Source of the DNA: Vicugna vicugna
Lineage: Eukaryota
DNA: 64,000 bases
Assembly: GCA_013265495.1 (NCBI GenBank)
Contig: MU057377.1
Location: forward strand, 526,939 to 590,938
Direction: 5' to 3'
Shown: positions 380 through 24,739 of the stretch, one piece after another
How the letters are laid out: each line of letters starts with the position of its first letter
Numbering within the stretch: the first letter of the stretch is position 1
Program-made: the position numbers and the translations under genes
The notes under the pieces: model-generated
Told to the model about the DNA's origin: nothing
The model's database searches: none
Seen by the model: only the letters and a program-made list of their open reading frames with translations

Positions 380-1030
380 ACCGCAGTGACTGCTGCGTTT
401 ACTGTGGAAGTGCTGTTACTCTCTTCCCTTCAACCGACAGGTTCACAAACCAGCAGCGAGGTTCAAGTCTAAGCCCGGGTCTCAGGGGCACCGAGACCTG
501 CCGCCATTCTCGCCTGCTGCGCAGAGAGCGACGCGCGGCGTCGGCACGTTTAAATAAGGCGCCGTCGTCTGATTGGCTAGGCGAATGCCTGCTGATTGGT
601 CCCCCGCGGATGTGGGCGGGCCCTGACGCGCCCATTGGCCGAGGCGGGAAGTTTAAACGGAGCGCAGTGCCTCCGCCGTCCGCTCCTGAACTGGAGTTTG
701 CGATTCTGTGGGGCCGCCGCTTCCCCGGGGTCCCGGCCTCCCGACAAGAAAGGGGGCAAGTGCGCTCCAGGTCTCCGCGGCTCCCCCGAGGGGACGCGGT
801 CGGCGTTCCTGTAGGTGCCGCTCGAAGCAGCCTGGCAGGGCCCGAGGCCGCCATGGCGACCTGGCGTCGGGGGCGCGGCTGCTGGGAGCGGAGCCCGCCC
901 GAGCGGAGGCCGCCGGCGGGGCTGCGGGGCCGCCGGGCCGAGGAGGAGGCGGCGTCCCCACCGGTCCTGTCCCTCAGCCACTTCCGCAGGTCGCCCTTCC
1001 TCTGCTTCGGGGACGCTGCCTGTGGTCCAT
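380..1030 (+). promoter_or_regulatory. CpG island; ASPM-type cell-cycle promoter (orphan copy)
   Basis: Very CpG-dense. ATTGG (inverted CCAAT/NF-Y) at 572-576, 595-599 and 634-638; GC box GGGCGGG 614-620; CDE GGCGG 643-647, a 4-nt spacer, then CHR-type TTTAAA 652-657. Directly followed by ASPM exon-1-like coding sequence. Confidence 0.85.
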
Positions 1031-1032
1031 AA
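853..1032 (+). pseudogene. ASPM: Truncated duplicate of ASPM exon 1 (59-aa ORF; ASPM similarity ends near 1015)
   Basis: GCCGCCATGG Kozak at 853 encodes [54 protein letters not shown], matching the ASPM N-terminus (human [55 protein letters not shown], from memory), then unrelated AACGP and TAA. No exon-1 donor or exon 2 follows. Opposite strand to the intact ASPM in this window. Confidence 0.9.
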
Positions 1033-1699
1033 ACAGCTGTGTATGGTGGTTTATGGTTTCTGCTGTAAAACAAAACTTTAACTAGGTTTTGCTTTCCCTC
1101 TGCTTCAGGTTTGTGTGCTGATTCCACTCAACGTACCAAACCACTAAGTCAGTACGTACAAAAGTGATGTTTACTTTTTACAGATTCCTTTAAACTCTGT
1201 TGCCTTGTTTAATCACAACAAACTCACGGGGTCATTGTCCACATTTGCAGAGAAGGCAACACTGTCAAAGGGTCTGTGTCCGATGGGTCAGGGCTAGGCA
1301 AGGCAGCAGGCAGGTTCACGTCCTGAGTCTTCTGTGTGTCTCTTTTCTCATCTGTAACCTGGAACTCGTGCCAATGGCAGCAGTGCAGGGTGCTCAAATG
1401 AGAGAGCTTCAGGCAGAGGTCTTGACTCTGTGTCACGGATAAATGTTCTTCTCCCAATTTTTAATAGGAAATATGCTTAGGGGATATAAACATTTATGCA
1501 TGGTTTTAGTCCTGGCAGTTAACAACTGGGATCCCATCCAGGTCTTGTGGTTTGAAATGCCATGCACTTTCCCTTATACTGTTATAGGCACGTGGCGTGA
1601 TTCTTTCCTAAAGACGTCTGTCTGGAGGATGAGGGGAAAATTAGAAGAAGAAGAAGATGCTTCATCAAACAGCCCCTAAGGGTCTAGGGTTCTCTGAGG

Positions 1700-1890
1700 A
1701 GACAATGCTTGTCAAACTTAAGAGTGCATCAGAACCACCTGGAGGGCTGGCTAACCTGCTTTTGAGGCTCCACCCCCAGACTTTCTCAGGCCTTAGGCAT
1801 AGACTAGGGCTACAGTTTGCATTTCTAAGAAGTCCCAGGTGATGCCTGAGCTACTGGGTCCAGGGACCACCTTTGGAAAATCACTGTAGT
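1700..1890. mobile_element. MER5-type hAT-Charlie DNA transposon relic
   Basis: Motifs caaactt..gtgcatcagaaccacctggaggg, ttgcatttctaagaagtcccaggtgatgc, gggaccacctttggaaaatcactg typical of MER5A/B. Boundaries approximate. Confidence 0.6.
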
Positions 1891-3890
1891 GGAAAAGAAA
1901 TATTAGAATATCCCTTGAGTGAAACACCTCCCCCACCCTTGGTGAATGAGCATGTCACAGTGACAAACAGCATTTGTCTGAGATGAGGGCAACCACTTGC
2001 ATCAGACTTGTCTGGACTGCTTGTTAATTAAATCAGGGAAATTTCTACTCACCACTGCAGAATTACTAACGTGAATTTCTGGGGCTAAGTACAGAAAACT
2101 GCATGTCACACAGGTTTTATGTACAAAGATAACAGCTCAAGAACCACAGAGCTTTACTAGGTAAAGTGTTATATTTGCCACAGAGAGAGAGAAATTCACT
2201 ATTAGTATAAAAATGAATCTACAGGATTCATGAATCTAGGCCTAAAAAGGAATGAACGTCAGGAGACCTATGTTTTGTGGAGCAGGGTTATTGGGTAAAC
2301 TATCCGAGGAAAAATTTTAAGTGAAATTTGGGGTTTCTTTTAATCTTCTAAACATTTTTTTAATTGGATAGTATTGGTGTGTTAGAATCTCCATATGATG
2401 GTTGTAGTGTATGGGGTTGGTTGGTTTGTTTTTGAACAGAATAACTTGAGTCTTTTTGAGGACATTCAGTTAAAATCGCCACCCACCCTACTGAATCGGG
2501 TTGAGCTCCGTGGTGTTTGCTCCCTGACTGCAGCTGAAACCAGCCATTCGAGGGCCCCGCTGCAGCATCCCTCCTGGGGAGGGCTCAGGGCAGGGTCTGG
2601 GGTCTTTGCTTCTCACAAACCCCTCGAGTGAGCTCTGCAGCCCGTGCTGGGAACAACTCAGGTAGATGCTGTGTATCACAGGCTCCTTGGTGCCAGTTGT
2701 GGAAATAGAAGCTCCTGCTACAGACGAGTACGGGCTGTAACGTGAATTTCCCTTCTTAAGAAAATAAGTCTCCTGTCTTCTGTCTGCAATGAGTTTGATG
2801 CTGTTTTGATGTGACTGAAAGACTTGGCTGAAGTTGCCCTGGCTCTTCCCAGGCTCCTTCGCAGCCAGGTTTCTGGAAGTTGTGTCATTGCATGTATGGC
2901 CACAAGGTGGCGGGCCAGCTCCATCTGACAACAAGCAGCTTCATTTGACTGGCTACCCCTGTCACTTTCTGATGTGTCACTAGTAAAAGTGTGTCACCTT
3001 TCTGTAAACCATGACCACAGAATCTTAGGACTAGATGGAAATGTGAGAGAGCATCTTGTTTATTGATTGTCATCCTGAGGTTCATTCTTTAAAAACGCTC
3101 TAGAAATTTTTTGAGTCAAGTGTATGTGTCGTTTGGCATGGCTGCCTAAAATCTCACAAACTTAAATGTGATCATGTACGTATGTATAAGAGTAGAATTA
3201 TACCTTATTTAAGTTAACTTATTTCATGTAAGTGATTTTCCTTTTTTGCTACTGTTTTCTCTCCATGAAATTTTATTTACTGCCTCTATTTGACTAGCAG
3301 TGACCTCAGTTGTTTTTCACATGCATTTCCAGAGAACAGCTTAATTTCCTGAACTGACTGTTGTCATACAATCCTTTGTGAGTTGGCCTAGAGGTAAGCA
3401 CCCCATTCAGATTTTGAAAATAGATACCTTTTTTTGTTATATATTTTTAAAAGACTATTTAATAAAATATGGTTTCACTATAAAGGCATTTGGGTAGCTT
3501 GATCTTTCAGTATGAAATTTAAGATCCTTTAACAAATGCTTATTGGGTTAATAGACCATGTTGTTGTATGTTATTGCCATTTTTTTATGTAGCAATTTTC
3601 CTGTCAGTTTCTTAGATAAATATAATTTGGTACTGGATATAATAACAAGTAGAGTAAGCTCTTTTCTGAATATTTACGAATGACGATTCTAGGCTGTTTT
3701 AAATATATTTTCTAATTTAAACCTGTATAAAACCCAGTCAGGTGTGTGTCATTATTTCCACTTCACAGGCAGAACAGGGGCTTAGATGTTAAGTGACTTG
3801 CTGAATGCCAGTGACTGGTCAGGATTTGAATTACACCGGTCTGATGCCATTGCAACCATTTTGATGGAACCCTGCTCATTAAAACATCAT

Positions 3891-4020
3891 GGTGGGTAGA
3901 GGGCACAGCTCAGTGGTAGAGCGCAGCCTAGCATGCATGAGGTCCTGGGTTCAATCCCCAGTGCCTCCATTAAATGAATAAATAAACAAACAAACCTAAT
4001 TACCACTTTCCCCCATAAAA
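3891..4020 (+). mobile_element. tRNA-derived SINE (camelid Vic-1-like)
   Basis: A box (agctcagtggtagagcg) and B box (gggttcaatcccc), then an aataaataaacaaacaaacctaattacc tail. The same family recurs three more times in the window. Confidence 0.8.
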
Positions 4021-4529
4021 GTCATCGGAATTTGAGTTGTTCACACGGTGCACAGTCCAATAATATTTAGAATGTTAAAACTAATTGAATTAGAATACCA
4101 CTAGGAGGTGACTGTTTAAAAATATGCTTTTATTAAAAATCCTCACTGTTTTCATTTCCTTTAGTCTCTTCCTGGTATACTCATATTTTCTTTAGGCTTT
4201 TTACCTTTATCATGTCAGAAAATCTGATGGTCCTCCGGTAGAGAATGTTCTCGGGACTCTGCAGCAGGCTGGACAGAGAACACAGGATGTATCTGAGGTG
4301 CGTGGAATAAAACCAGGCAGAACTGACCTCTGCTGCTAGAAGTTGTGTTTACCCTGGGGGTGGGTGCACCAAGGCCATGGCTTCAGGCAGGATGGGTAGG
4401 GTGTATCCTACTTCTCCTTTGGATGCTGATTTCATAGATTTGTTCAGTTTGTGAGAATCCCTTGATCTGTGCATTCATGGCACATGTGCTTCTCTCTTCA
4501 TATGTTGCATTTTAATAAAAGTTCCCAAA

Positions 4530-4757
4530 TTGGGAGTTTGAGATTTACATATGTTAGCCACCAAAGATAAAAATAGATTTAAGAAATAAAAAAAAAATGT
4601 CCTCTGTATAGCACAGGGAACTATGTTCTATCTTGTAATAACCTTTAATGAAAAAGAACATGAAAAGGAATATACGCATGTATACGCATGACTGAGATAC
4701 TGTGCTGGGCACTAGAAAGTGACACATCGTAACTACTTCAACTTAAAAAAAAAAAGA
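4530..4757 (+). mobile_element. LINE-1 3' end fragment (cetartiodactyl type)
   Basis: tgggagtttgagattt...tgtatagcacagggaactat...aaagtgacaca...tacttcaa + A tail; same motif set as 27445, 31040 and 61471. Confidence 0.75.
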
Positions 4758-5229
4758 AATGATAGTAGTTCCCAGATCACAGTATTATTTTGTAGTTTAA
4801 ACTAAAACCCATTAGCATGTAAACTCCATGAAGGCCATCACTGGAATCTATTTTTTCACCTCTGTATACCCAAGATTAGAACATGTCCTGGTGCCTACTG
4901 GACGCTGAAAACATTTTACATAAATGATAATTTAGCACACCACTTATCTCATCGGCTATCATGGCATACAAGCCTCTCACCGGCAGACACTGCCATCAAT
5001 AGTATTACTGAAAGTACTCCATCACTGCTCGGGACAATCGCCTTTCCCTTTCTCAGTGCAGTCTAGACTGCACCGAATGTTAATATCAGGGACCCATTAT
5101 CTCACGTACCTAAGGTCATCCTTTCATTTGATCGATGGTGGTGAAGAAATCAATGGCCACAAGTGAACTTCACTCTCTGACCTTACAACAGGGAATTCAA
5201 GTTGAAAACGTGCCCTGTTTTTTATGCAG

Positions 5230-5504
5230 CCTGAGTTAATGATTTGTGCTGCTCTTACTGTCGCCCTGACCGCTTAGTGTGTTCTTCGTGGACGGTGGCA
5301 TGAAAAGTAATGTCAGTTAACACAACTGTGTATTTTCAGTATTCTTCTAAACTATTTTAAATGAAATGCAAGGCTTGTTACAAAGGGACTTAGACAGATG
5401 TCGTAAATAATTAACTTTTTTTTTCAGGAGAAGTACTGTGTACTTAACAAGGGGTCCCTGGTGCTGTAGCACTGGTAACACCTGTATTAAGCACACCGCT
5501 GAAG
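5230..5504 (+). promoter_or_regulatory. F13B liver-type proximal promoter with HNF1-like sites
   Basis: GTAAATAATTAAC at 5403-5415 (near-consensus HNF1 GTTAATNATTAAC) and GTTAATGATTTGT at 5235-5247, upstream of the F13B ATG. Confidence 0.55.
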
Positions 5505-5568
5505 ATGGGATCAAAAGACTTGGCTGTTATTATCCTATTAATCATCTCAGGAGAACTCTATGCAGAAG
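5505..5568 (+). CDS. F13B: F13B exon 1 (signal peptide)
   Basis: ATG 5505; MGSKDLAVIILLIISGELYAE; donor G|gtaaaa. Confidence 0.95.
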
Positions 5569-8500: not shown

Positions 8501-11500
8501 TGCCCTCCCAGCCCAGCTCCGAGGAACTGCTCCAGGGTTTGTTTCTTTTAAGTGTTTTTATGATTTTTAAGGTCTCCATCGTTAAGGATGGATTTTTTTT
8601 TAAATAAATGTCTTATTTGGAGTATAATGTACACAGAAAAGTGCAAAAATATTGCAAAAATCGTAAGATCCCCTTCTGTAAATGGTTATGAAATCTTCCC
8701 GCACCCAGATCAATATATAGAACATTAATTAGCCAGAACCCAGGAGCCTCTTAAATTCTCCTCTAAGGATAATGCCCAAGTCGCCATCCTGACTTCTCTG
8801 ATCACGGACGACTTGGCCGCAGGGTGATGTGCCCACGGTTAGGTGGAAGGAAGCTTCCAAAGGGATGCTCTCAGGACTCAGGGCTGACGGGTCTTCCAGA
8901 ACAGGGGCGGTGCTGCCAAAGCCCAGCTCACCAGAGAGCAGGGGGAAGCCTGCCCCTCACCCCCTGAGCCGGAACACATTCCCAGAAAGAGGGCAGGAGC
9001 CTCAGGAGAGCTGCGGACTGGCCTGGGCCGACGCCCTCCCTGTGGCATCCTCCTCTTCATCCTGGCCAAGGGGCAGAGGACGGGAGGAGGGCCGTCTGCA
9101 GGGGACGCAGGCTCCGCAGACCACGTGCCCACAGCGTGGGCGGGGATGAGCGCCAAGGGTGGGGGTCAGGGCCTCCCCTCTGCCCACCTCCTGAGGCTGG
9201 GTGCGGGGTGCTGGCCCGAGGAACAGGCGACCTGCCCCCGCCTGGCCTGACTGCCGCCTCCAGAATCTACAGTCCTCGGCCTTTGGCCTCGATTCTGGTC
9301 CTTGCCTCTCAGGTCACCGAGGGCGCGTGGAGCCCAGGCCGCTGCCAGCCCAGCCCCTCCTGAGAAGCCAACCAAAGGCAAATAAAGTTATTGCATGTTT
9401 GAGTGGAGAGAAGAAAAAAAGAAAAGATCCAGCAGAGTTTCGCAGCGGGTCTGCCGTGCCGCGCAGGAGGGGCTCCGTTAGGTCAGCGTCCTCTGGGAAA
9501 GTCCTGCCCACAGCCCTGGGCACCGGGTCTTCCTCCCAGAGCCCACCCCCCACCCCGCCCACCGGGTCCTGCGTCTGCGTGGAGACGGGGGTAGGTGCAC
9601 AGCCTGCCCAACAGCGTCAGGCCCTACGGTCCACCGCCGACCAGCGGCAGCCTCGGCTCCATCACCCGCGGGCTGACTCCGGCTCCCGCCCGGCTCCGCT
9701 CGGCCGGCACAGCTCTCGGACCGCCCAGGGCATCACCAGAGGCCGAGTGGTACCAGCGGCTGGCTGGTAGTGCTGCCCACATCCTCGCTGGAGGAGGCCT
9801 TGCTGATTCCTCCTCCCATGAACGGGTTTCATGTTGCTCTGTGGTGTGGCCGGAGCCTTGAGGCATCAGAAGGGACTTCTCTGTGGTTCCCCTGGGCCCT
9901 GTCTGCTGCTGCCTGGGCACCCACATCCGGGCCCCGGCGGTGCTTCTGAGCAGCTGTGGTCAGAAGCACTGTCATCTCTGCTGGCCTAGGAGCCAGTCCA
10001 TCTCCTGCCCCATCCTGGGGCTCCTCCTTCAAACCACAGCCAAGTTCAGCCCAGCCGGAGCCACCCCACACCCAGCGTCCCCAGCTGGGTGCCTGGAGAT
10101 GGGGGTTAGGGGGGGTGAAACAGGTGAAGGGGGTCAAAAGGTACAAACTTCCGCTTATAAGTAAGTCCTGGATCTGTAATGCATAGCATGTTGACGATAG
10201 TTAATGATACTGTATCACATCGTTGAAAGTTGCTAAGAGAGTAGATTGTAAAAGTTCTCAGAATAAGAAAACAGAACTTGTAACTATATGTAGTGATGAA
10301 TGTCAACTAGACTTAATGGTGGTGATCGTTTCCAGTATATACAAATATTGAATCATTATGTCATATGCCTGAAACTAGTATAAAGGTCTATGTGAATTAG
10401 ATCTCAGTTTACAAATCACACATTTACTCATATGTGACTGGCTTCACTCAGTCGTGTGTCTGTGAGATCTGCCCTCAGCATCCACCATCCCTGTTGCTGT
10501 GCGGTACCTGCCATGTGCACAGTCTGAGGTGCGTTTATTTTCTGCTGTCGCTTGGCTGCTATGTCTGGCTGCACAGATCTGGTTTGTGCATATTCTGCTT
10601 TGACAAAAACTGCCCAACTGTTTTCTCGTTGAGATGTTGCACCAGTTCACACTGACTTGCAGTGGTCTGAGAGTTCCCTCTTCTCTGTGTGTTCACCAGC
10701 CACTGAGGGAGTCTCTGTTTTCCGTGTCAGTCATTTCAGTGGATGTGCGGACTACCTCACAGTCATTTAAACTTGCATCTCCCAGGTGACTGGTAAGGCT
10801 GAGCCTTCCTTACTAGATTTCTGACCACTTCAATGTGAAGTTCTCCCTCGAGTCTTTTAATTATTTTTTAATTGGTTGTCCGTCTTTTTCTTAAAAAGCA
10901 AAACAAAACAAAAGCCATTCATTTCAAAATCTGCAACTTCAAATATCTTAAGGAGAACCTCATCTATTCTAGAATTCTGTCCAATACTGGTGGCCACTAG
11001 TCACATGTGGCTCTTGAAATGCGGCTAGTCCAAATTGGGATGTGCTGTGTCAATGCACACTGGAGTTCAGACTTAGAAAGAAAAATACTTTTAATATATT
11101 GGGTCAAATAAAACCTGTTAGAAAAATTAACTTCAGCTGTTCCTTTGATTCATGTGGCTTCTAGAAATTTTAAAATTACACACGTGGCTTGTTATATTTC
11201 TATTAGAAAGTGCTGTTTGACAAAATCAGGAAAAGCTTCTCTGAGGAAGCAGCCTGCCCAGACTTATCTGACAGTTTAGTGCTCGGGTTGGTGGCAGATT
11301 AATTCTGATGGAAAAGGATTGTCACAAGCATGCTTTAAATATTTAGGTAATAAAAATAAGTACTGAAGTACATGCAAACACATGGAATTTTCAAATGTAT
11401 TGTGGCTTGATCACAAACTGTATGGTTTTAAATGTAGTTTTCAGTCTTCAGCTTGACATTTACTCATTTCAGAGAAACCCTGTGGTTTTCCGAGTGTGGA

Positions 11501-14500
11501 AAATGGACGGATTGCCCAATATTACTATACTTTTGAAAGATACTACTTTCCAATGAGCATAAATCAGCATTTGACCTTCTCCTGCTTGGCCGGTCACACA
11601 ACTAAAACGGGGAGACAAGAGGCTCGCATCGCGTGCACAGCAGCCGGCTGGTACCCAGAACCACGGTGCTTCAGTAAGTCGGTGAAGGGCTCCGCTAGTG
11701 TGCGAATGTGCAAACTGATCAGCTTGTAAAAACTGGGTCCAGTGAAATAAGGCAAGTGTTTAAACCTTTGGTAGATAAGAACAAAATCATCAGCCCATAG
11801 TCTTCTTTACAAAATGAAAGCATATCCTGAAATTCTGTAAATCAAGTCTTTCATTAAAATGTGATCTTTTCCATCTGTTTTTAATAATACCCTGTGAAAA
11901 GGATAAGGATAATTATTGAAATTGTTGTTATCACGTTGCAAGGAACAGCACTGAGTTACTTCAAGGAATGCAAACTTATGCAGATAATTGTGCAAAAGCC
12001 AGAAAAATACTTGACATTGGCCTAAGGATGAACAAATTATTATTCTAATGTTGAATCATTCAAAGCCTCACCTCTCCTTGGTATACCAACTGTCTTCTCT
12101 TCAAATACCCATTGAAAAATGTTTTTTTCTGAAATTTGAGGTCACACTTGTGAAAAGGAAGCCGATTAGTGCATCTCAATGTTTCACGTCAGTCTGTGCT
12201 GGAGTCAGACTGTCAGCTGGCTCTCACTGGGTCCGGTGGCCTCTCTCGATTGAAGGCTTCCCGAAGCCCTGTTTTGCAGAGGAAGGGGCTTTACTTGAGT
12301 CTGTTCCATTTAGAAGAGAAAGTGGATATGGTCAGTATGGCGGCTAAAATGTCCAGTAAATGTGTCCATGGGATAATTATCCATTCTATGACCTGAGGAC
12401 AGACTATGAATGTGAGCATTGCACTTTTAGTGTGAGCATGGACCATAGATTAATGCTAGAAAATAAATCTCACTTATATCTAGAGCATTAGGGTAAATTA
12501 AACACCCTAGGTTTATTGACTCTTTTAGATTGGAGGTGAGAGCAGTGAAGTAGGGGCCAAAGCAGGATGAGGCGGGTTTAGCACTGCAGTGTCGTGGTCA
12601 AGACACACCCTCTGCGAATGGACTGCTGTCTGTGAATCCCCCTCCACTACTGGGAAGTGGCTGAAACATTCTGAACCAGAGTTTCTCAGCTATAAAATGG
12701 GAATCATGCTGCTTCAATGAGATAATCCTTGTAAAGTGCTTGCCACACAGCAAGTATGACATCGATTTAAACAAATGTTAACCTTGGGCAAGTCTCTTTG
12801 CCTTTCTGGATTGATTTGTTATGGGGTCCATGAATGAGGCTTAAAAAATGATTGAACTCCATACAACACTAAGGCAAATGTGATATCCAACACATCACTG
12901 TTCCAAGTCTTTACTAAAATACTCCGGACTCATATGCTTTGAGTGACATGTCTGTGATTCAGTCACAGTCTACGTGGCCTGACTCTGTCTGAAGTCCTGC
13001 CACGCAGGTAGCCCATCAGACGTTGAAAAAAATGAATGAACACAGTTTTCACACTAAGTTGTCTGCAGAATGATTTAAGGATCCACACAGTAGGTGTATG
13101 TTCTTTAGTTACATGATGTTAAAAATTATCAAACACAGTGGACTCAAAAGTACCAAGAAAGTAAGTCCAAAAGAAATTCCTGTTATTTGCCATTAATGAC
13201 AATTAGTTAGAGGAAGAGCTCTGGATATATTTTCTAAAATAGTTGAGGCAGGGGTAGGAATGACTCTGAGAGCTGAAGTTAGTACATACCAAGAATTTCG
13301 GTGTCAAATTAAATCCACATTTAAAGAAATTTGATGCACAACATGCAGGGTATTTCCAAAATTAAACTAAATCAAGAACTTGTGGAGTGAACATTTTTTC
13401 CTCTCTCTCCTTAAAATTCCAAGAATAATGTTAAACATTTGAGAAACTTCATCAATTTAGAAAAGAAATTTTTTTTTCTCATAGAAAAATGCCCTAAGCC
13501 TGACTTAAGAAATGGCTACATCTTTGATACAAAATTATCTTACAACATTCAAGAGAACATGCGCTACGGTTGTTCGTCAGGATATAAAACCACTGCAGGG
13601 CAGGATGAAGAAGTGGTTCAATGCCTCCCTGATGGATGGTCCTCTCAGCCAGCCTGTAGGAAGGAGCATGGTACGTGCTTAAGAGTCATCTCCTAAATCT
13701 GTAGATAAGGGCCTGTGGGTTTAGTGCTTTCTTGTATTGGTAGGCATTTTTATTTAATATAATTGTTAATATAATTGTTCTGGATGCAGGAAGTTGTTAT
13801 ATTATTTCTCTCAAATGCTAAGTGTTTCCTTCATCCAGGAATTCCCAACGGCTACCACACCTACTCCAGGAGTTCCTACTTTCTACTGGTAAAAAAGGAG
13901 TTGGAGTGGAATAAAAGGAAAGAGTCTTAATGAACATATTTTTTGCAACATACATAATTATTATTTCCTTCATTAGAGAAGAATTCAAAACAATGCACAT
14001 TATTTTATACTATAAACCAATATCATATAAACTTAAAAATAATCCAATAATTTGTATATATATACACACATATATACAAACATATATATGTATACTTTGT
14101 TAACATGTTGTTAGTTATTTAAATTATACAAATCCACAGATGGGACATCATCAAGAAATACTGCAAAAGCCTTCTGTTGAATTATGGCTTTTGGTCAAAC
14201 ACACTGGACTAAAATTGTAAGAACAGAAGACGGCTGGGGTTAGGACACAAGGTGCATGAGGAAAGGGAAGCGAGAAGCAGAGGGAAACTTTGACTGTTTT
14301 TCAATGTTGCCAAGAGTTGCTTCTGTCATATATTCTTAAGATTCAGGGAGAACACTTTTTGAGATTTCTTTTTAATTACTCTAGGTTTCGTGATAAAGTT
14401 CATAAAACAAATGACTTTAATTTCTTTTTAGAAATGTGCTTGGCCCCTGAATTACATCATGGAAATTATTCCACAACACAGAAAACATTCAGAGTGAAGG

Positions 14501-17500
14501 ACAAAGTACGATATGAATGTGCCCCCGGGTACCACACAGCTTCCGGGAAGAGGACGGAGGAGGTGGAATGTCACTCGTACGGGTGGGCTCTCCCCCCACG
14601 ATGTGCCAGTAGGTTCTCACTTTGAACACAGCTGCTTTCACTCTGAAACTCCCTCTCGAACAGAAATGGGTACAAGTTGCCTGCTAATTATGTTCCTTTT
14701 TTTATACTTTGTTTCTGGTTTTAATGACGTTGACAGTAGGCTTTGATCATTTCAACGTCTCAAATAGGAAAAATTCTTTTTAGCTCAGATAATTTAAAAT
14801 CAAATAAGCTCAATGTTATTTAATAAATACATCAATTGACAAGCTTTTACTGTGAATAACAAAATATGGCAAATTTGCTGATTTCTAGTTCAGATGTGGC
14901 ACATAAGTAGGAGGTGGATTTTGTTCCAGCAAAAAATAACACTTCTTTGTATTTTTTATTCTTTCATTTTTAGAATTAAAATGCTCTTCCTTAAGATTAA
15001 TAGAAAATGGTTATTTTCATCCTGTAAAGCAAACCTATGAAGAAGGAGACGTAGTTCAGTTTTTCTGTCATAAAAATTATTACCTCAGTGGATCTGACCT
15101 AATTCAGTGCTATAACTTTGGTTGGTACCCAGAATCTCCTGTCTGTGAAGGTGAGTTTTAAAATTTAATACTCACACAAATAAAATGTCATGTCTGAATC
15201 AGCTTTAATTTCTATGAAAAAAAAGTCTCTGATGACATCTAATTCTTGTCCCAAGTGATATTTTTAAAAATAAATACTGCCTTTTAGATCAGTATTATTT
15301 TCTGCAATCTTTAATACATTTAATCTGAAGAAATCTTAAGTTTTATATTAGTTTGTAGAGTGGATATATGTTTTAAACATATTTTTAAAAATCTCATTAT
15401 AAATTTCAAATCTCTTACTATAAAGAAAAACTTTTCTTATTATAATTGATCCAGTTGTCCCCAGTTAGCAGCTATATGAAGGTACTTTCTTATTATTTGG
15501 CCACATGTTTTCTTATGTGAAAATACTGTTTTCAAAACAGTGGGGGAAAGAGTAAAAAAAGCAGCAGAATGTTTCCCAGAGTGAAAATGAAAAATGAGGT
15601 CATCTAGTAAGAGCTGCCCTAAAGTGGAATGTCTGTGTTACGTTGCTGTCACTGGATGTGTTCAAGCAGGTGGTGTGATCACCCGTTAGGAGACAGCAAT
15701 GCAGTCTCACGTGATCACACCTGCAGTGCTAAATGACGGAGGTCCTGGTCCAGCAGGGGAAACAGAGAGAACAGAGTAACTGATACAGTGTGACAAGCGG
15801 TAGAATAAAGTCAGGTGTAAAGTATTTGAACCAACATTAAAGACTCCGATTGATACTGTACGGGACAGCGTGACAGAGGTGATGGATGGTGTTTGACCTG
15901 AGCCTTAAAGGATAAATGAGAGTTTGAGGATTGGGAGGGAAGGGGGAGGTGGAGGGCGTGGTTGCCTCTATTTTCTCTGTAATGTAGAAAATAGTGCCAT
16001 TTTAACACGCAGGAGAAAGATGGGAAAGTAAAACTTGGAAGACAGTGGTGAGGATCTGAAACAGTTGCTGGAAGGCGTGAAAGAGGGGTGACCAAGAGCA
16101 CATAATGGGATTGCCCAGAACTGCCGTTATTTCTAAATGCACTGAACGATGACTAATTTTTGTTGTTAAAAATAGTCTTTTTAAAATTTCCAGTGGTCTA
16201 ATAGTAGAAAGGAAGATTATTAGCAAATTGTCTGTAGCATATTATTTCAAAAATAAATGGCAGACATACTTCTCACCAATTCCACACTCCCCCAACCCAA
16301 TTAGTCAGGTGCCAATGTTCCCGTTATGTTTTCTAGTCAATAGTCGTTAGATGCAGACTAGGCAGTGTAGTGGTTCGAATAACGCCTCCTGCCCTCCTGA
16401 CACACCCCCACCTCCCCAAAGACATCCAAATCCTAACCCCTGGAACCAGCGAGTGTTACCTTATATGGCGAAAGGGACTTTGCAGACGTGGTGAATGTAA
16501 GGAATGGCGGTGGGAATAACATCTGGGATGACCTGTGTGGGCCCTAAAGGTAGTCACACGCATCATAAGTATGAGAGAGGAAGAGGGAGATCTAACCAGA
16601 GAAGGTCGAGTGTGAGATGTGACTATGGGAGAAGAGGTCGGAGTGGAAGAGCAGAACTGAAAAGCCCAGGCTAGCGGGCAGCCCCCCAGAAGCTTGAAGA
16701 GGCAAAGACGCAGCTTCTGTCCTAAAGCCTCCCGAAGGAGTGCAGCTCTCCTGACTCCTCAGTGTCAGCCCAGTGAAACCGATCCTGGACTTTGGCTCCC
16801 AGAGCTGTAAGAGAATAGATTTGTGCTATTTTAAGGCACTACTTTGTGGTCATTTGTCACGGCAGCCATGGGAACTTAACATAGTCAGTATTTTAGAACA
16901 GATTAGAGCAGGAGATTTTAATTCAGACACGGGTTCAGGAATAGATCCACCACTTACTCATTATTCACTTACTTGGTAAGTTTTAGTTTCTCCGTCTATC
17001 AGATGGGAGATGTAATAGTCCCCACTTAGCAGTTATTTTAAGATTAAAGGAGGTAAAGAATGTAGAATGCTTGCTTCTTTTAGTTTTCTATTGGCACATG
17101 AACCACACACTCGGCAGCTTAAAAACCACACACTGACGTTCTTTCACAGTTTCCGTGGGGTAGGGTTCCTGGTGTGGCTGAACCAGCTCCGTGTCTGTGT
17201 CTAACCAAGCTGCAGTCAGGGTGTCAGGCAGGCCTGTGGTGTCATCTGAGGCTGGCATGGGGAAGAGTCTGCTTTCAAGTTCACTGAGGCTGCTGGCAGC
17301 TTTCAGGGCTTGGCAGGCTGCTGAGCAGAGCCTCGGTCTCTTCCTGGCTGCCCACCGGTGTGCCCCCTGCTCTGTGACCCTCGTCATTTGGAAGCTTATA
17401 AGGAGACAGCTTGCTTCCTTTCAAAATCTGCAGGGAGAGGGTCTCTGGGCAAGAATGGCCTTGCAATATTATGTTGCATCAGCACGTGTGTGTTATCACA

Positions 17501-20500
17501 CATCCCGCCCTCCAGGCTGTGTTCACTGGTTAGAAGCAGGTCCTACTTCCTGCTCTTGTTGGGGTGGGGGGGGCTTGACTCAAGGAAGTGCAGGTCAGGA
17601 TGTGGGGATCGAAGGGGTGACCCCAGTCTGTCTGCCACACTTCTTGTGGTCCTTGGCACGACAGACAGCTTACGAAATCTTAGGCTTTGTGCTCTAATTA
17701 TATGACCAAATACCCTGACGCTTTTCCGTAAGGAAGAAGAAGTCGGTGTGCCCCTCCGCCTCTGCCGGCCAACTCCAGCGTTCAAGCGCACGCGGCCACT
17801 TACCGCCACGGGGCAGCGGTGCGCGTGTCGTGTGAACTGCACTTCGAGATGCAGGGGCCGGAGGAGATGCGTTGTGAAAATGGAAAGTGGACAGAGCCTC
17901 CGAGATGCGTGGGTCAGCAACACCTCAAATCAGCCTTCCCGAAAATGAAATCCGTGGGTGGAGCTAAACGGTCTCCCCTCTTTAACTTGTCCCTGTTCAG
18001 AGGCAGGCGAGCGGGAGGCCTGCGGCGAGCCACCCTTCGTTGAGAACGCGGCGGCGCAGCCCTCCTCCGGGCGCTTCCACGGCGGGGATAAGGTGACGTA
18101 CGCGTGCGCAGCAGGGTACCACCTCCGTGGACCCCCGGAGATAGCCTGTCGCGGCGGGCAGTGGACCGCGCCCCCGGCGTGCGCGGGTAGGTGGGCGGCA
18201 GCGCACGCTGGGCCTGCGGTGAGCGTGTCCGTCCCGAGGCGCTCGCAGCGCCGGCCCGTTGCTCAGAGGCCTTCCAAGCCGGTGCCCTGGCACAGCACCA
18301 GCTCCGCTGCTCTTCGTGAGTGTGTGGCGCCTCTGTAGATCATAATCCAAGGTAAAGAGGTGGGCAACCGAAGCAAGTTTTGAATGTCCTGATGGTGGTA
18401 CTTTTGCGTCGGGCCAGGCTTGGCCCTAATAAGCCCTTGTGAGCCATACACCTGGTCGTTCTCTCCCCGAGGGGCACAGCCGGGCCACGGTACCGCTCCC
18501 GGCTGCTACCCTTCCTGTGAGCCTTCTCCTTTCTTGATCAGGTCCGGGAGGGACCGCCACAAACATGTTTACACAATAGAGAGAAGCTATTAAGCATGCT
18601 GGAGAAATGAGCAGAATGAGGGAAAGACTCTGAAGACAGAGAGGAAAACGGAAATTTTCATCCCTGGGTTGTCTGAGATCTGAGATGAATAAGGATGAAA
18701 AGGGAAAGATCAAAATGGATAGTGACTAAGGATAGTTTTAGAACTGACCATAATCTTCAGGTTAAAGAACACTGTTTACCTTTCTGTATGTCCTAAGATT
18801 ATCTATATTATGATTTCTTCATAAGCAAGGAAAGCGAAAAATATGCATACTTGTTCTTAGGCAAAACGTTCGCCGTTTACTTTCACTTAGTAAATTTTAA
18901 CAATACTTGAGCTGAACGTTTCTCTCATTTCTGGTGAATTTAGAAATCAGTTGTCCTAAATTACATAGTACAAATATCGAAGTGCTCTTGTATGGGTAAC
19001 TGTATTATATCATGATGTTCTTGTAAGTCCACGTTAACTTTAAAATAACCTCTTTTTCTTAGAAAATACTGAGAATTGTAATGCTCCCCCTGTTGTAATA
19101 AACGGGGCTGTTGTTGGTGAACCACTGACCAGCTACACAACGGGATCCTCGGTGGAATATAGATGCAATGAGTACTACCTGTTGAGGGGAGAAAAGCTGT
19201 CTCACTGTGAACAAGGAAAATGGTCACCCCCACCTGTTTGCTTAGGTAAGACAGAGAATGCATAGAACCAAAAGATTTTTTCCCTGGCTTTATTGAGATA
19301 CATTCGACATAACATTGTGTAAGTTTAAGGTGTACAATGTGATAATTTGATACACAAATATATTGCGAAATTATCACCACAGTAAGATTAGTTTACGTAT
19401 CCTTCACTGCATGTAATTTTCTTGGTTGTCGTGATGAGAGCATTTAAGCTTCTGGCCACTTTCAAGGGTACAAAACAATACTGCTGACTCTAGTCCTCAC
19501 GCTGTAATCAGATCCCCGGAACTTACTCTGTTTGTATAAGAACACATTGAATTTGTTTCACCCTTGTGTTTGTATTCTTTGTAATCTATTTAAACAAAAT
19601 TTTTCCTTCCAGTTTTATTGAAATATAATTGACATACAGCATCTATATACTTTTTGGAGGAGAGTGGTTGTATTAACAGATTTATTTTTTAAATGGAAGC
19701 ACTGGGGATTGAACCCAGGACCTTGTGCCTGCTAGGCAAGCACTGTGCCACGAGCTGTACCCTCCCCCTGTGTTTGTATCCTTATGTGATTTTCATGCAA
19801 TGTTTTATGCATGGAAAAAAATGATTTTGTATAAATTTTTTTCAAATATTTTCCCTTATAAGTTCTGTAAGCAAAAAATCCCTAATATCTTAGCGTTTAG
19901 GAGTGTACTAGTTGTTGCCCCACTACTTTTTAAAAAAATTGTGGCAAAATAAGAACAATAAAACGTTACCAGTTTAACTGTCATTAAGTGTGCATTTCAG
20001 TGGCGTTAAGTATTTTTATATTTTGGGGTCTGATTACATTGTGTTGCCTTTCTCCTAACTGAAGTTTCCCCTTAGTGCAGTCCTCAGGGTCTCTCAGCTA
20101 TCCTCAGAATGCTGAGGAGCACTGAGAAGAATAATCAGTCTACTGCTTTCCCCGGGAGAGCGTGGGGTTAGTAACTTCCTTTGCCACTGCTTCCTCGATT
20201 GAATGGTCACCTTTGTTTTCTCTTGTTGAGCAAATAAAAACGTGTTGTATTCACTGATGTGCACCGAGTGATAAGCGTTCCACAAATATTATACAACTAA
20301 ATGCATTTTCTAGCTCAAGAATTTTATTTTTTAGGAAGGAAATCATGATGAACCTAAGTGGTTGATGGTTCTAATTTTTTTGTTTGTTTTTAACGTTTCA
20401 AATTAAGTGGTTTTAATTTATGATACAATGAAGAGAATATGAAACAAATTCATTTGATAGCAATAAAGGATCTACTTTGTTATGTATGTGTGCAGAGAGC

Positions 20501-23500
20501 TTTAATGATGACAGATGGTCCATATAAAATACAGCTTTTGATGCTTATCATCATTTTTATCGTAACAATGTGTCACTTTCATATTTTTCCAATGAGTTTT
20601 AGAAAGAGCCTTTGTTTTACAGAGCCGTGCACTGTGAATGTGGACGACATGCACAGAAGTAACCTGGAGATGAAGTGGCAGTATGAAGGGAAGATCTTAC
20701 ACGGAGACTTGATCGATTTTGTGTGCAAGCAGGGATATGACTTGCCCCCACCAACTCCGCTTTCCGAGTTGTCTGTGCAGTGCGACAGAGGACGAGTGAA
20801 GTATCCCTTATGCGTTAGGAAAGGTAAACCAATAGCACTTCCTGACAATGTCTCAGCCGATCAACATCACCGCTTGGGTTCAAGGCAGAAGTCCGTCACC
20901 TGCTGCCCGCCTTGTCTGCACAACTGGGAACCATCTGGTCAATTTCCAGCCAGCACATACACTTAAATAGGGTGGTCCTGCTGACACCCTTCAATTCTAG
21001 GAGTCAGTTTTATAAAGGGAGAAGTCACGAGGCTTCGTAAGTGTCGCCGGACTGTCACAGGACGGCTCGCCCTCCTGCGAGCAGTCAGCACCCCTGTGAA
21101 CCTCGCTCTCTGCAGGGTGTCCTGGGGAGCGGTCGCAGGGAGGGCTGGATGTAAGGGGGAGATTCTGTGTACTCCCTGGATGCGGGACGGTCACTTTTAT
21201 CAAGAGAAAAGGGAAGAGAATACATACAGAAAGCATGGCTTCAAGAGGCGCCTTCCACACTTTCACTTTGGGCTGACGGAAACGGAAAGATGCAATCATG
21301 ATTGCTAATACTTTGCTAGTTTTAAATGTGCATTTCATACGACAAGATTCGAATTATCATAAATTTTATGGTATGAAGTTATGGCAGAAATGCCCTCAAT
21401 ATTTAAAAGTCACTTGAGCGTTGTCTTAAAACTGCCCTTACATGAAACACCTGCCCTTGTTTCTGCAGCAACTGTGAAGGTGCTGGGTGCCTGTCGTAGC
21501 GACTCATGACTTTAACAATTATTGTTGCAGAATTTAAAAGAACGTGTGCGTCTCCCCCACTTATTAAGAATGGAGTCATCAAGGGGTCAACGGCGGGCAC
21601 CTATGAAAACGGCTCCTCCGTGGAGTACAGGTGTTTCGAACACTATTTCCTGCAGGGGTCCCGGGAGGCCTACTGCTCAGAGGGCGCGTGGACGGCGCCG
21701 CCGCTGTGCTTAGGTACGTGCGCTCTCCGCTTAGCAAAACCAAACCGCGCCTTTCCCTTTCCCTTTCCCTTCTCTTTGAGTCGCTGTAACACTAACATGA
21801 TGCTCACTTCGGTGCATCTGTGTGGTTTTATTAGTGTGCCTGTTTAATGACTGGCTTCTCTTCTTTCCCGGAGACCACACATAACCAGAGCCCAGCTCGA
21901 TCTAGTGCTTTCTGAGCACAAACCGCACAGCGGGCTCTGGTTTGGTGGGGGCTTTGGATGAAGAAGCCGTTGGTGTGACTGGGGCGCCACGGAAAGCTCA
22001 AGGACCAGGCGGGGCGCGGGCAGAGATGCGCAGGGCCTGTTTTCAGGTTTTCCAGTTCTCAGGAGAAGTGCTGGTCTGGTACAGGCGTCTCTGTCACAGC
22101 TGAGAGCAGAAGTTCTGTGGATCAGTTTGTAACTAGTTTTAATTTAAACTGCATGTTTTGTAGAACAGTGACCTTCTACATGACAGCACCGTTTGGCCTC
22201 ATTTTCAAAACAATTTGGCTGCGACTTTAAAGACCCTATTAGACTCTTTCTAGTAATCCCTGTCCACTCGTCCTCCATCTGGAGCACGTCCGGTGCAACG
22301 TCGGACACGTGGCATCTGTGAATGCTTGTCGGGAGTGACTGGGTAGAGTTCTGATGTGTCACGGTTACACGATTGATCTGCTGTGTTAGCAAATCTGGAC
22401 CTTTCATTGCTCTCAGAAGCCACGGCTTAGTGCTGGGGCACCCAGGAGGCAAATGAGAACACAAGTCGCCCCCTTTTCTGAAATGATTTGATAGTTGACA
22501 TTTTAAAAATACCGATATTTTTATCTTAAAAAAACAAAAAAGTTTGTTGGGTATCCTTATACTTAAGTTTTTATTTTGTTTTGTTTTAATGCACAAGGAG
22601 AAGGTCACAATAATACTGTCAAAGCTTAGAATTTAAAGCATCTCAGTCCAGTCTTGATATTTCTTAATAAGGGGGAATTTAGAAGAGAAGAAATTGTCAA
22701 TTACTTTGGATACCCTTTATGCATCAGGTCATAAAGTCTGAGTCAGTGTTGAGTATGCAGCTTATTTCTGCATTTCCAAAAAAATACTGTCTGTCCAATA
22801 ATCAATGATTTGTCTCGTGGGTATTTTATTTGAACTTTCTGAAGAAGAAAAAGGAAAAAGAATGTGATTTCAGTGACTATGGGTAACTATCAGTATTCTT
22901 AAAAAAAAAAAAACGCCTGTTTTTGTTTTCTGTCTTTGAAAAACTCAGTAACTGACAGGATGTACCCTTTTTCCAAATTCAAGGCAACGGAGATAAATGG
23001 CAGACTGTTTTCTGTGAACTTTGAACATATTTTCTTTTAAATCTTATGTATGTATGTATGTTTTATTTGGGGGGTGGGAATTAGGTTTATTTGTTTGTTT
23101 GTTTATTTAATGGAGGCACTGGGGATCGAACCCAGGACCTCGTGCGTGCTAAGCACGTGCTCTGCCCCTGAGCTTTACCCTCCCGACCAGTGAGCATGTT
23201 TTCTGCCTTGAACATTAACCCTGACTAACTTACCGGCAGCTCTCATGCCTGGGAGCTCTAAGGTCGTCATGAAGGGGACTCAGTGGCTCCTGTTAGTGCT
23301 GAGGTGCATCAGGATAGTCTTCTGCTCCTTTTTCTTTTTTTCAGAGCCTTGCACCTTATCTCTCATCACAATGGAAAATAATAATTTACTCCTGAAATGG
23401 AATTTTGACGATAGGCCTTATATTTTCCACGGCGAGTATGTTGAGTTTCTTTGTAAGGGAAATACTTTCATATCCGACTTCCCTAGCATGGGCTCTGAGC

Positions 23501-24739
23501 TCCGAGTGCAGTGTGACCGAGGGCAGTTAAAGTACCCGAGGTGCATTCAGAGAGAAAGGTAAGAGAGGCTCGTGCCTGCAGCTGGTTTGTTTTGTTTGTT
23601 TGGTCAGACTTATTCATGAGATTTATTATGTTACACATTTCAGAAATATCACATTCTGCAGTACTCTTCCTTTATGGTTATTAAAAAGGAAAAAGTTATG
23701 TTTTGTTTAACTTTTTAAACCAAGTGAACTCCTAGAAGTATTAATTCAACAAGTTTTCTGAGTTGTCTAAAGTCAAGGCCCTGCTTGCTATTTGACATTT
23801 GTGACACTTTGGCAGTCGGGTAAATAAATCCAGTTATATGAGCAATATTTAATGTGGCAAAACTAACCTATATGTGCTGAGATAAGAGAGAAGCACATTT
23901 TCTCCCACTTCCCAGTCGAGGTTCAGGAATACATAGCAACATAGAAACGTTCTCCTGAAGGAAGAGCATGTTAGTAGCAATGATTAAAACTGTGGTACTT
24001 TGTTTCAGAAACACATTTCTATACAAGATTTTGGACTTTCCTTCTGGAGGGTTTCTCATGTACCAATTTAAAAAGTAATTTTCTACTACTTGATCAATCG
24101 AACATAATCCCTTTCCTTTTTAAGAAAAATATTAAAAGAATGTAGTGAAATAATGTCATTCATTTCATGGGATCATATTTTGATCCTTTTGAAGATACAT
24201 TATAAAATGGAAATTATACTCTGTGTTCAACTAAATATTTTTTAAATGATTTATGGCAAACTGCATATGGTACTTTTCTAGTGGCTATAAACAATGAGCT
24301 TTATGAACTACATAAGGAGGACAGCTTTTTAGAGACTTTGAACACTAGAAAAACTTTATAAGACAAACACAGGTGGAAACTTTTATTTTTAATTTTTAAT
24401 TGTGGTAAAAAGTGTGGTAGAAAAATTTATGTGTTATCTACATGTTTTAGTATATCCTGTCTTTCTCAATTCTTAGAGAAAAAGAAGTAAGTAACTTAGA
24501 CAAAAATTAAAATGTTATTGTAGTTAATTATAATGAGTTTTAAAAAGAAATTGGTGGTATAATTTACTAAGGATGGTTACTTGCTTTTGTCAGTACTTCC
24601 TTAAAACAAGGACTAATTATCTGAAATGTTGAAGGGCTAAGATTGTAATAAATACTTGATCAAAAATGATGTTTATTTCAACTCCTCCCTTTCTTTCCTA
24701 TCAAGGATGTTGTCTTATCAAGAACCCTTAAAGACATAA
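5505..24739 (+). CDS. F13B: Coagulation factor XIII B chain, complete 12-exon gene (signal peptide + 10 sushi/CCP domains)
   Basis: Exons 5505-5568, 11473-11673, 13485-13670, 14432-14608, 14974-15150, 17733-17912, 18001-18186, 19063-19245, 20623-20823, 21531-21713, 23345-23558, 24706-24739. All introns GT-AG; total 1986 nt = 661 aa + stop, open frame; N-term MGSKDLAVIILLIISGELYAEEKPCG, C-term LSYQEPLKT*. Confidence 0.97.
10100..10412 (+). mobile_element. L1M-type LINE-1 3' UTR fragment
   Basis: gggggtcaaaaggtacaaacttcc..ttataag, ttgaaagttgctaagagagtaga, cctgaaacta motifs of L1MA/MB 3' ends. Confidence 0.7.
10975..11217. mobile_element. MER3-like hAT-Charlie DNA transposon relic
   Basis: ctgtccaata...gccactagtcacatgtggct...gtggcttgttatatttctattag..agtgctg pattern. 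Confidence 0.6.
11473..11673 (+). CDS. F13B: F13B exon 2 (sushi 1)
   Basis: tttcag|AG AAA CCC TGT GGT; KPCGFPSVENGRIAQYYYTF...WYPEPRCF; donor gtaagt; 201 nt. Confidence 0.95.
13485..13670 (+). CDS. F13B: F13B exon 3 (sushi 2)
   Basis: KCPKPDLRNGYIF...GWSSQPACRKEH; 186 nt; ag/gt flanks. Confidence 0.95.
14432..14608 (+). CDS. F13B: F13B exon 4 (sushi 3)
   Basis: MCLAPELHHGNYSTTQKTFRVKDKVRYEC...PPRCA; 177 nt. Confidence 0.95.
14974..15150 (+). CDS. F13B: F13B exon 5 (sushi 4)
   Basis: LKCSSLRLIENGYFHPVKQTYEEGDVVQFFC...WYPESPVCE; 177 nt; absent from the ORF track, read directly. Confidence 0.95.
16366..16881 (+). mobile_element. MaLR (MLT1-type) solo LTR
   Basis: Starts TG; cctaacccctggaacc, gggactttgcagacgtg, gacttt..ctcccagagctgtaagagaatagatttgtg, tttgtcacggcagcc...aaca. 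Confidence 0.75.
17733..17912 (+). CDS. F13B: F13B exon 6 (sushi 5)
   Basis: RRSRCAPPPLPANSSVQAHAATYRHG...CENGKWTEPPRCV; 180 nt; donor gtcagc. Confidence 0.92.
18001..18186 (+). CDS. F13B: F13B exon 7 (sushi 6)
   Basis: ACGEPPFVENAAAQPSSGRFHGGDKVTYAC...WTAPPACA; 186 nt; preceded by an 88-nt intron. Confidence 0.92.
19063..19245 (+). CDS. F13B: F13B exon 8 (sushi 7)
   Basis: NTENCNAPPVVINGAV...GSSVEYRCNEYYLLRG...WSPPPVCL; 183 nt. Confidence 0.95.
19651..19768 (-). mobile_element. tRNA-derived SINE (Vic-1-like)
   Basis: Reverse-strand A/B boxes (ggggattgaacccagg; gagctgtaccctcccc). Confidence 0.75.
20623..20823 (+). CDS. F13B: F13B exon 9 (sushi 8)
   Basis: PCTVNVDDMHRSNLEMKWQYEGKILHGDLIDFVCKQGY...KYPLCVRK; 201 nt. 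Confidence 0.95.
21531..21713 (+). CDS. F13B: F13B exon 10 (sushi 9)
   Basis: TCASPPLIKNGVI...YENGSSVEYRCF...WTAPPLCL; 183 nt. Confidence 0.95.
   Translation, partial: NLKERVRLPHLLRMESSRGQRRAPMKTAPPWSTGVSNTISCRGPGRPTAQRARGRRRRCA
23060..23185 (-). mobile_element. tRNA-derived SINE (Vic-1-like)
   Basis: aattaggtttatttgtttg...ggggatcgaacccaggacctc...ctgagctttaccctccc. Confidence 0.78.
23345..23558 (+). CDS. F13B: F13B exon 11 (sushi 10)
   Basis: PCTLSLITMENNNLLLKWNFDDRPYIFHGEYVEFLC...QCDRGQLKYPRCI; 214 nt. Confidence 0.95.
24706..24739 (+). CDS. F13B: F13B exon 12 coding part
   Basis: tcaag|G ATG TTG TCT TAT CAA GAA CCC TTA AAG ACA TAA. Confidence 0.93.

Follow-up and report, generated by a model that had tools for sequence, protein, structure and literature searches.

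The question raised by this locus is why the promoter and the beginning of exon 1 of ASPM should stand in front of F13B, while the body of ASPM is found on the other strand. We addressed it in a window of 64,000 nucleotides of Vicugna vicugna DNA, the whole stretch whose first lines are shown above and to which all coordinates refer. Positions 1–1014 of this window are the genuine ASPM promoter and the start of ASPM exon 1 of this animal. They lie in an unstranded CpG island (1–1015) delimited from GC content, CpG observed/expected ratio and CpG counts. In 200-nt steps up to base 1000, GC content rises from 0.50 to 0.79 with a CpG ratio of 0.79–1.03 (GC 0.59–0.79 and ratio 0.87–1.03 in 401–1000); in 1001–1200, GC content drops to 0.41 and the ratio to 0.47. 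Counted per 100 nt, there are 12, 13 and 13 CpGs in 701–1000 and 2 in each of the four bins of 1001–1400, so that the island ends abruptly at a junction at position 1015. On the + strand of the island, pattern scans identified three inverted CCAAT boxes (ATTGG at 572, 596 and 634, within 572–638), which are candidate NF-Y sites, and a CDE (GGCGG) separated by the 4-nt spacer GAAG from a CHR (TTTAAA, 652–657), the pair reading GGCGGGAAGTTTAAA at 643–657; a GC box (GGGCGGG, 614–620) was read directly. The island and all of these motifs had been described by the initial annotation, and each is present where it had placed them. The CDE/CHR pair is the single match in 64 kb, where 0.10 would be expected; one or more occur in 9 of 100 shuffles. 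The triple inverted-CCAAT pattern occurs twice in the window (expected, 0.30), and 3 of 100 shuffles reach that number. An extra TTTAAA hexamer occurs at 549–554, upstream of the CCAAT boxes, without a CDE-like GGCGG 4 nt before it.

A passage of the CHR literature describes TTTAAA as a functional CHR and one of the two strongest DREAM-binding variants, and places the CDE four nucleotides upstream of the CHR (PMC4176359); p53-DREAM target lists given in part of another paper include ASPM (PMC10581385). The element shares with G2/M promoters of the CDE/CHR plus NF-Y kind the TTTAAA CHR within a TATA-less CpG island, the G/C-rich CDE exactly 4 nt upstream of it and the several CCAAT boxes further upstream; it differs from them in its CCAAT spacings, here 24 and 38 nt. 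From these motifs, the promoter in 1–1014 is predicted to be of the NF-Y/CCAAT plus CDE/CHR late-cell-cycle type, that is, of the DREAM/MMB-FOXM1 class.

The coding sequence that follows begins with an ATG at 853 in the context GCCGCCATGG, which opens a 59-codon ORF. Among 135 candidate proteins, 65 match this ORF at E ≤ 0.001, and PF15780, the ASPM Pfam domain, is found in 65/65. Protein matches and alignment assign 853–1014 (+ strand) to ASPM codons 1–54: identity runs column by column through D54 (bases 1012–1014) and then gives way to the unrelated residues AACGP and a TAA stop (1015–1032), at the very point where other ASPM proteins continue with (V/L)(R/L)LGASRTL... after residue 54. Exon 1 of ASPM comprises 99 codons in other mammals and ends in ...FVLQ (gene models that read into the intron do so after ...VLQ); the exon in the window is short by 45 codons, 55–99, and by the splice donor, its stop coming 5 codons past codon 54. 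The break is located at the GC peak of the island (0.79–0.80). The perfect-Kozak start, the 54 ASPM N-terminal residues and the abrupt loss of similarity near 1015 claimed earlier are therefore confirmed, the last matching base being 1014. Neither residues 55–140 of alpaca ASPM (best E 0.51) nor residues 100–1294 (best E 0.14) are encoded in any frame of the 64-kb window, which rules out, within these 64 kb, a frameshift or a transposon insertion in exon 1 with the remaining exon lying behind it.

Comparison with other camelids indicated what this exon should look like. The window N-terminus equals that of alpaca ASPM (XP_031545999.2, hereafter P0193) at 53 of 54 residues and that of Camelus at 52 of 54. 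The sole difference from alpaca is residue 51, which is C in the window and in all other species and S in alpaca; W4 and P37 are common to the window and alpaca, and the camelid-specific R45 is found in all camelids and in the window. The exon is in these respects like the orthologous exon 1 of alpaca and camels, but it ends at codon 54 of 99 without a donor, and the gene body to which it should belong lies on the opposite strand, beyond F13B. In each of the 12 camelid ASPM proteins retrieved (11 members of one cluster plus P0002, from alpaca and three Camelus species), exon 1 is intact and the sequence runs on past FGD with (L/V)RLG(A/S)SRTLPLVLDNPNEE..., so that an uninterrupted exon 1 is what is normal for camelids. 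Short ASPM proteins, from horse and hippopotamus among other species, were considered as possible orphan copies and rejected, because they consist of the full exon 1 plus intron read-through.

Downstream of the junction, translation reading places exon 1 of F13B, encoding the signal peptide (MGSKDLAVIILLIISGELYAE), at 5505–5568 on the + strand, with a phase-1 donor (AAG/GTAAAA). It lies 4.47 kb downstream of the stop at 1032 and on the same strand, which confirms the position about 4.5 kb upstream of F13B previously assigned to the element. Its end, ...LYAE, abuts residues 19–21 (YAE) of PDB 8cmt_C, directly ahead of the exon-2 match. The exons of sushi domains 1–10 occupy 11457–23556 on the same strand, as determined from matches to 8cmt_C, from the hamster model P0181 and from an HMM scan: 8cmt_C residues 19–96 correspond to sushi 1 at 11.46 kb, residues 89–154 to sushi 2 at 13.4 kb, residues 210–270 to sushi 4 at 14.97 kb and residues 519–588 to sushi 9 at 21.5 kb, while sushi 4–8 and 10 were placed via P0181. 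The sushi 5 and 6 exons (17732–18182) are only ∼73 nt apart and sit in a block of 53% GC; at 59% and 54%, respectively, their agreement with the hamster protein is far below that of sushi 4, 7 and 8 (92%, 74% and 76%), and all four cysteines are retained in each. GC-biased gene conversion may be the cause of this divergence. Intron 1 of F13B also contains a GC-rich block (8800–10100, GC 0.61–0.73) with a mostly low CpG observed/expected ratio (0.26–0.73), directly followed at ∼10080–10400 by what we take to be the 3′ end of a LINE-1.

The far side of the window holds ASPM exons 17–28, which protein comparison places on the − strand from 59242 down to 35419. F13B (+) and ASPM (−) are convergent, and their 3′ ends are about 10 kb apart. 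Exon 18 is an ORF of 1460 codons (50378–54760) that is 98.8% identical to alpaca P0193, with 10 mismatches plus 7 gap positions over 1433 residues (50447–54724), 96.6% identical to Camelus bactrianus (47 mismatches) and 97% identical to the representative of the 11-protein camelid ASPM cluster; the remaining ASPM exons of the window are 95–100% identical to alpaca. The gap positions may stem from a true difference in the IQ repeats or from a difference between assemblies or gene models. Together with the N-terminal residues, these values place the window in a South American camelid that is near the alpaca reference yet distinct from it. The initial annotation had spoken of an intact ASPM on the − strand: the strand is correct for the exons 17–28 that we see, and the intactness of the gene is a matter for exons 1–16, which lie outside the window.

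This arrangement departs from the usual order of the two genes. The hamster protein P0181 (Cricetulus griseus, 2761 aa, ‘coagulation factor XIII B chain-like’) consists of nearly all of ASPM fused to F13B sushi 4–10. It is a read-through fusion, itself an annotation error; since it joins both genes in one protein, ASPM lies upstream of F13B on the same strand in hamster. We take human and mouse to have the same tandem order, ASPM then F13B. The order in the window is promoter (+), F13B (+), ASPM body (−). If P denotes the promoter with codons 1–54, A the rest of ASPM and F the F13B gene, the usual order is P-A-F and that of the window is P-F-A(inverted); the two differ by a single block, A, which is shifted across F and inverted and one end of which coincides exactly with the exon-1 break. 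We found no paper that combines ASPM and F13B with an inversion.

What the element is, exactly where its similarity to ASPM ends and how the genes are ordered in the window are established; the issue is whether the junction at 1015 exists in the animal. We infer that it more likely does not and is not biological and, with slightly better than even confidence, we favour an assembly that is mis-ordered or chimeric over a duplication or relocation that is real and recent. Under such an artefact, pieces would have been broken in the GC-richest part of exon 1, and the piece carrying the rest of ASPM would have been set beyond the F13B piece in reversed orientation, or a chimeric join would have been created at 1015. 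There would then be neither an orphan promoter nor a promoter capture, and the gene driven by the promoter in the animal would simply be ASPM. Several observations count for this explanation. The 54 codons are undamaged and include R45 and W4, as expected of the true orthologous exon, and an uninterrupted exon 1 is what 12/12 camelid proteins display. The break sits at GC 0.79–0.80 and cuts the island sharply. A single cause accounts for two anomalies, the interrupted exon and the unusual order of the genes. Finally, public protein sets show no trace of the junction.

What has been published on assembly errors is consistent with this explanation. In older Sanger and Illumina assemblies, according to PMC9516821, missing sequence peaks at the transcription start site, the 5′ UTR and the first exon of CpG-island genes, and the break described here likewise falls where the first exon of a CpG-island gene is richest in GC. 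The likeness is incomplete, however: errors at such GC-rich 5′ gene ends are usually gaps or missing sequence, whereas here the join is seamless and neighbouring blocks are rearranged. Purely as context, the blocks implied by the rearrangement measure tens of kb, the same size range as the contig N50 of 29–66 kb of published short-read alpaca assemblies (PMC6598621). The window contains no N at all, and this absence, together with the seamless join at 1015, counts against a plain scaffolding error, which normally leaves gaps; a false gap closure, an assembly merge or a chimeric contig must therefore be assumed. An artefact would also require a minimum of two erroneous joins within the window plus one more beyond it.

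The same seamless, N-free junction speaks for the principal alternative, a real and recent inverted duplication, or a relocation leaving a remnant, that carried 1 kb or more of the ASPM 5′ end to a position 4.4 kb upstream of F13B. We consider this possible but rather unlikely. Its boundary would have fallen at codon 54 by chance, and outside the window, on the minus strand, there would be an intact ASPM with a promoter of its own. Those ASPM coding exons that the window contains are indeed intact and conserved, which implies that an ASPM promoter exists somewhere; taken at face value, the window requires that promoter to be a second copy. On the other hand, two independent events are needed, one inverting F13B with respect to ASPM and the other producing the duplicate, and the chance boundary would have had to fall within ∼300 nt of the highest GC content. 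The second copy was not found in the window, although it is expected outside it. A copy that is young or unmethylated would agree with the CpG ratio of 0.87–1.03 and with the undamaged ORF, and the retained CpG density had earlier been taken to suggest that the duplicate is recent, or still unmethylated and active; ratio and ORF are equally expected of a sole genuine promoter, as is every other feature that supports the duplication, and they do not bear that conclusion. The anatomy then proposed stands, namely an NF-Y plus CDE/CHR ASPM promoter with 54 codons directed towards F13B and the gene body on the other strand; the duplicated orphan copy proposed along with it is a hypothesis. A textbook case of a duplicated promoter with first exons beside a neighbouring gene is pseudo-BRCA1 next to NBR1/NBR2. 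The likeness lies in just this adjacency of a partial 5′-end duplication to a neighbour gene, but in the BRCA1 case two copies are present in one genome, whereas a single copy is present within our window.

Repeats at the junction were also considered. The spacer from the junction to the F13B start (1016–5504, + strand) was scanned for copies of itself, poly(A) hexamers and splice donors. The sequence 1016–3898 has no further copy within the window, and the promoter has no second copy within these 64 kb, so that a repeat-mediated join was rejected on the grounds that each side is without another copy in the window. The only repeats common to the promoter–F13B spacer and the rest of the window belong to a tRNA-derived SINE family (GGGATTGAACCCAGGACCT core), with copies at 3926–4006, 19694–19767, 23111–23184 and 44323–44396.

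We then looked for independent traces of the junction. In 14 DNA runs, representing five organism codes and five studies, 83–93% of the sampled words of 380–1700 are present, a share that is blind to whether the two sides of the junction adjoin. Both sides are thus real camelid DNA, and the occurrence of both in many camelid runs agrees with a duplication. In the RNA runs X15–X20 the share of sampled words of 380–1700 is 0.08–0.21, which says nothing on expression or read-through. The exact 59-aa product is absent among about 15 billion protein sequences. Longer-protein, near-length and exact look-ups returned no database entry with the junction peptide or with an ASPM–F13B fusion, and the lack of the junction peptide weighs against the duplication. 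No match to the 59-codon ORF exceeds 91% identity in either length class, and the near-length search gave one match, the hippopotamus short isoform. A 26-nt camelid-specific word located just before the junction was found in 0 stretches of a metagenome scan.

The probability that remains beyond the artefact and the duplicate or relocation goes to rarer readings. The literal reading of the window is that, in this animal or its lineage, a real rearrangement left ASPM cut off from the one promoter it had. This we regard as exceedingly improbable: a promoterless ASPM would decay, and the exons are under evident constraint, exon 18 being open over 1460 codons at 98.8% identity to alpaca and the others standing at 95–100%.

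It had further been suggested that the promoter could drive F13B. Were the copy real, F13B might have been captured, transcripts starting at ∼660–720 running or splicing into it so that it would be expressed in proliferating cells. The promoter architecture is complete, lies on the same strand and is 4.5 kb away. The stretch that separates it from F13B is unfavourable to such a capture. Exon 1 no longer has its natural donor at codon 99, and only one consensus splice donor, at 3393, is available between the promoter and F13B exon 1. The spacer contains nine AATAAA/ATTAAA poly(A) hexamers (1015–5504), the first of them at 2027. From 853 to the ATG of F13B there are 97 ATGs, the first of which opens the perfect-Kozak 59-codon ORF. 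In addition, sushi domains occur in 0 of the 65 proteins that share the N-terminus. The suggestion is hence without support, and we hold a capture of F13B to be very improbable; the missing donor, the upstream ORF, the 97 ATGs and the nine hexamers make a productive one unlikely even if the junction is real. Judging by its complete set of promoter motifs, a real copy could fire in G2/M, and a short, early-terminated non-coding transcript is then much more likely than expression of F13B. The orphan copy postulated under the duplication may accordingly be pictured as giving in G2/M a short unspliced transcript that carries the 59-codon ORF.

If the junction is an artefact, as we favour, ASPM, a much-studied brain-size gene, would be mis-annotated here, lacking its first exon or credited with a spurious orphan promoter, and F13B would be falsely shown with a cell-cycle promoter upstream. 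A different conclusion would follow if the genomes of South American camelids did contain, 4.4 kb ahead of the liver gene F13B, the ASPM G2/M promoter and a strong 59-codon ORF as an inverted copy still rich in CpG, a proposition that we consider doubtful. The copy and the true ASPM promoter, ∼90–100 kb away, would then form a pair of inverted repeats on either side of F13B and ASPM. Recombination between them could turn the entire segment round, and the inverted copy could direct proliferation-linked transcription towards F13B. A real junction would be of moderate interest for promoter capture and for inversion-prone inverted repeats, and would offer a clean example from nature of a tissue-specific gene with a duplicated cell-cycle promoter set before it.
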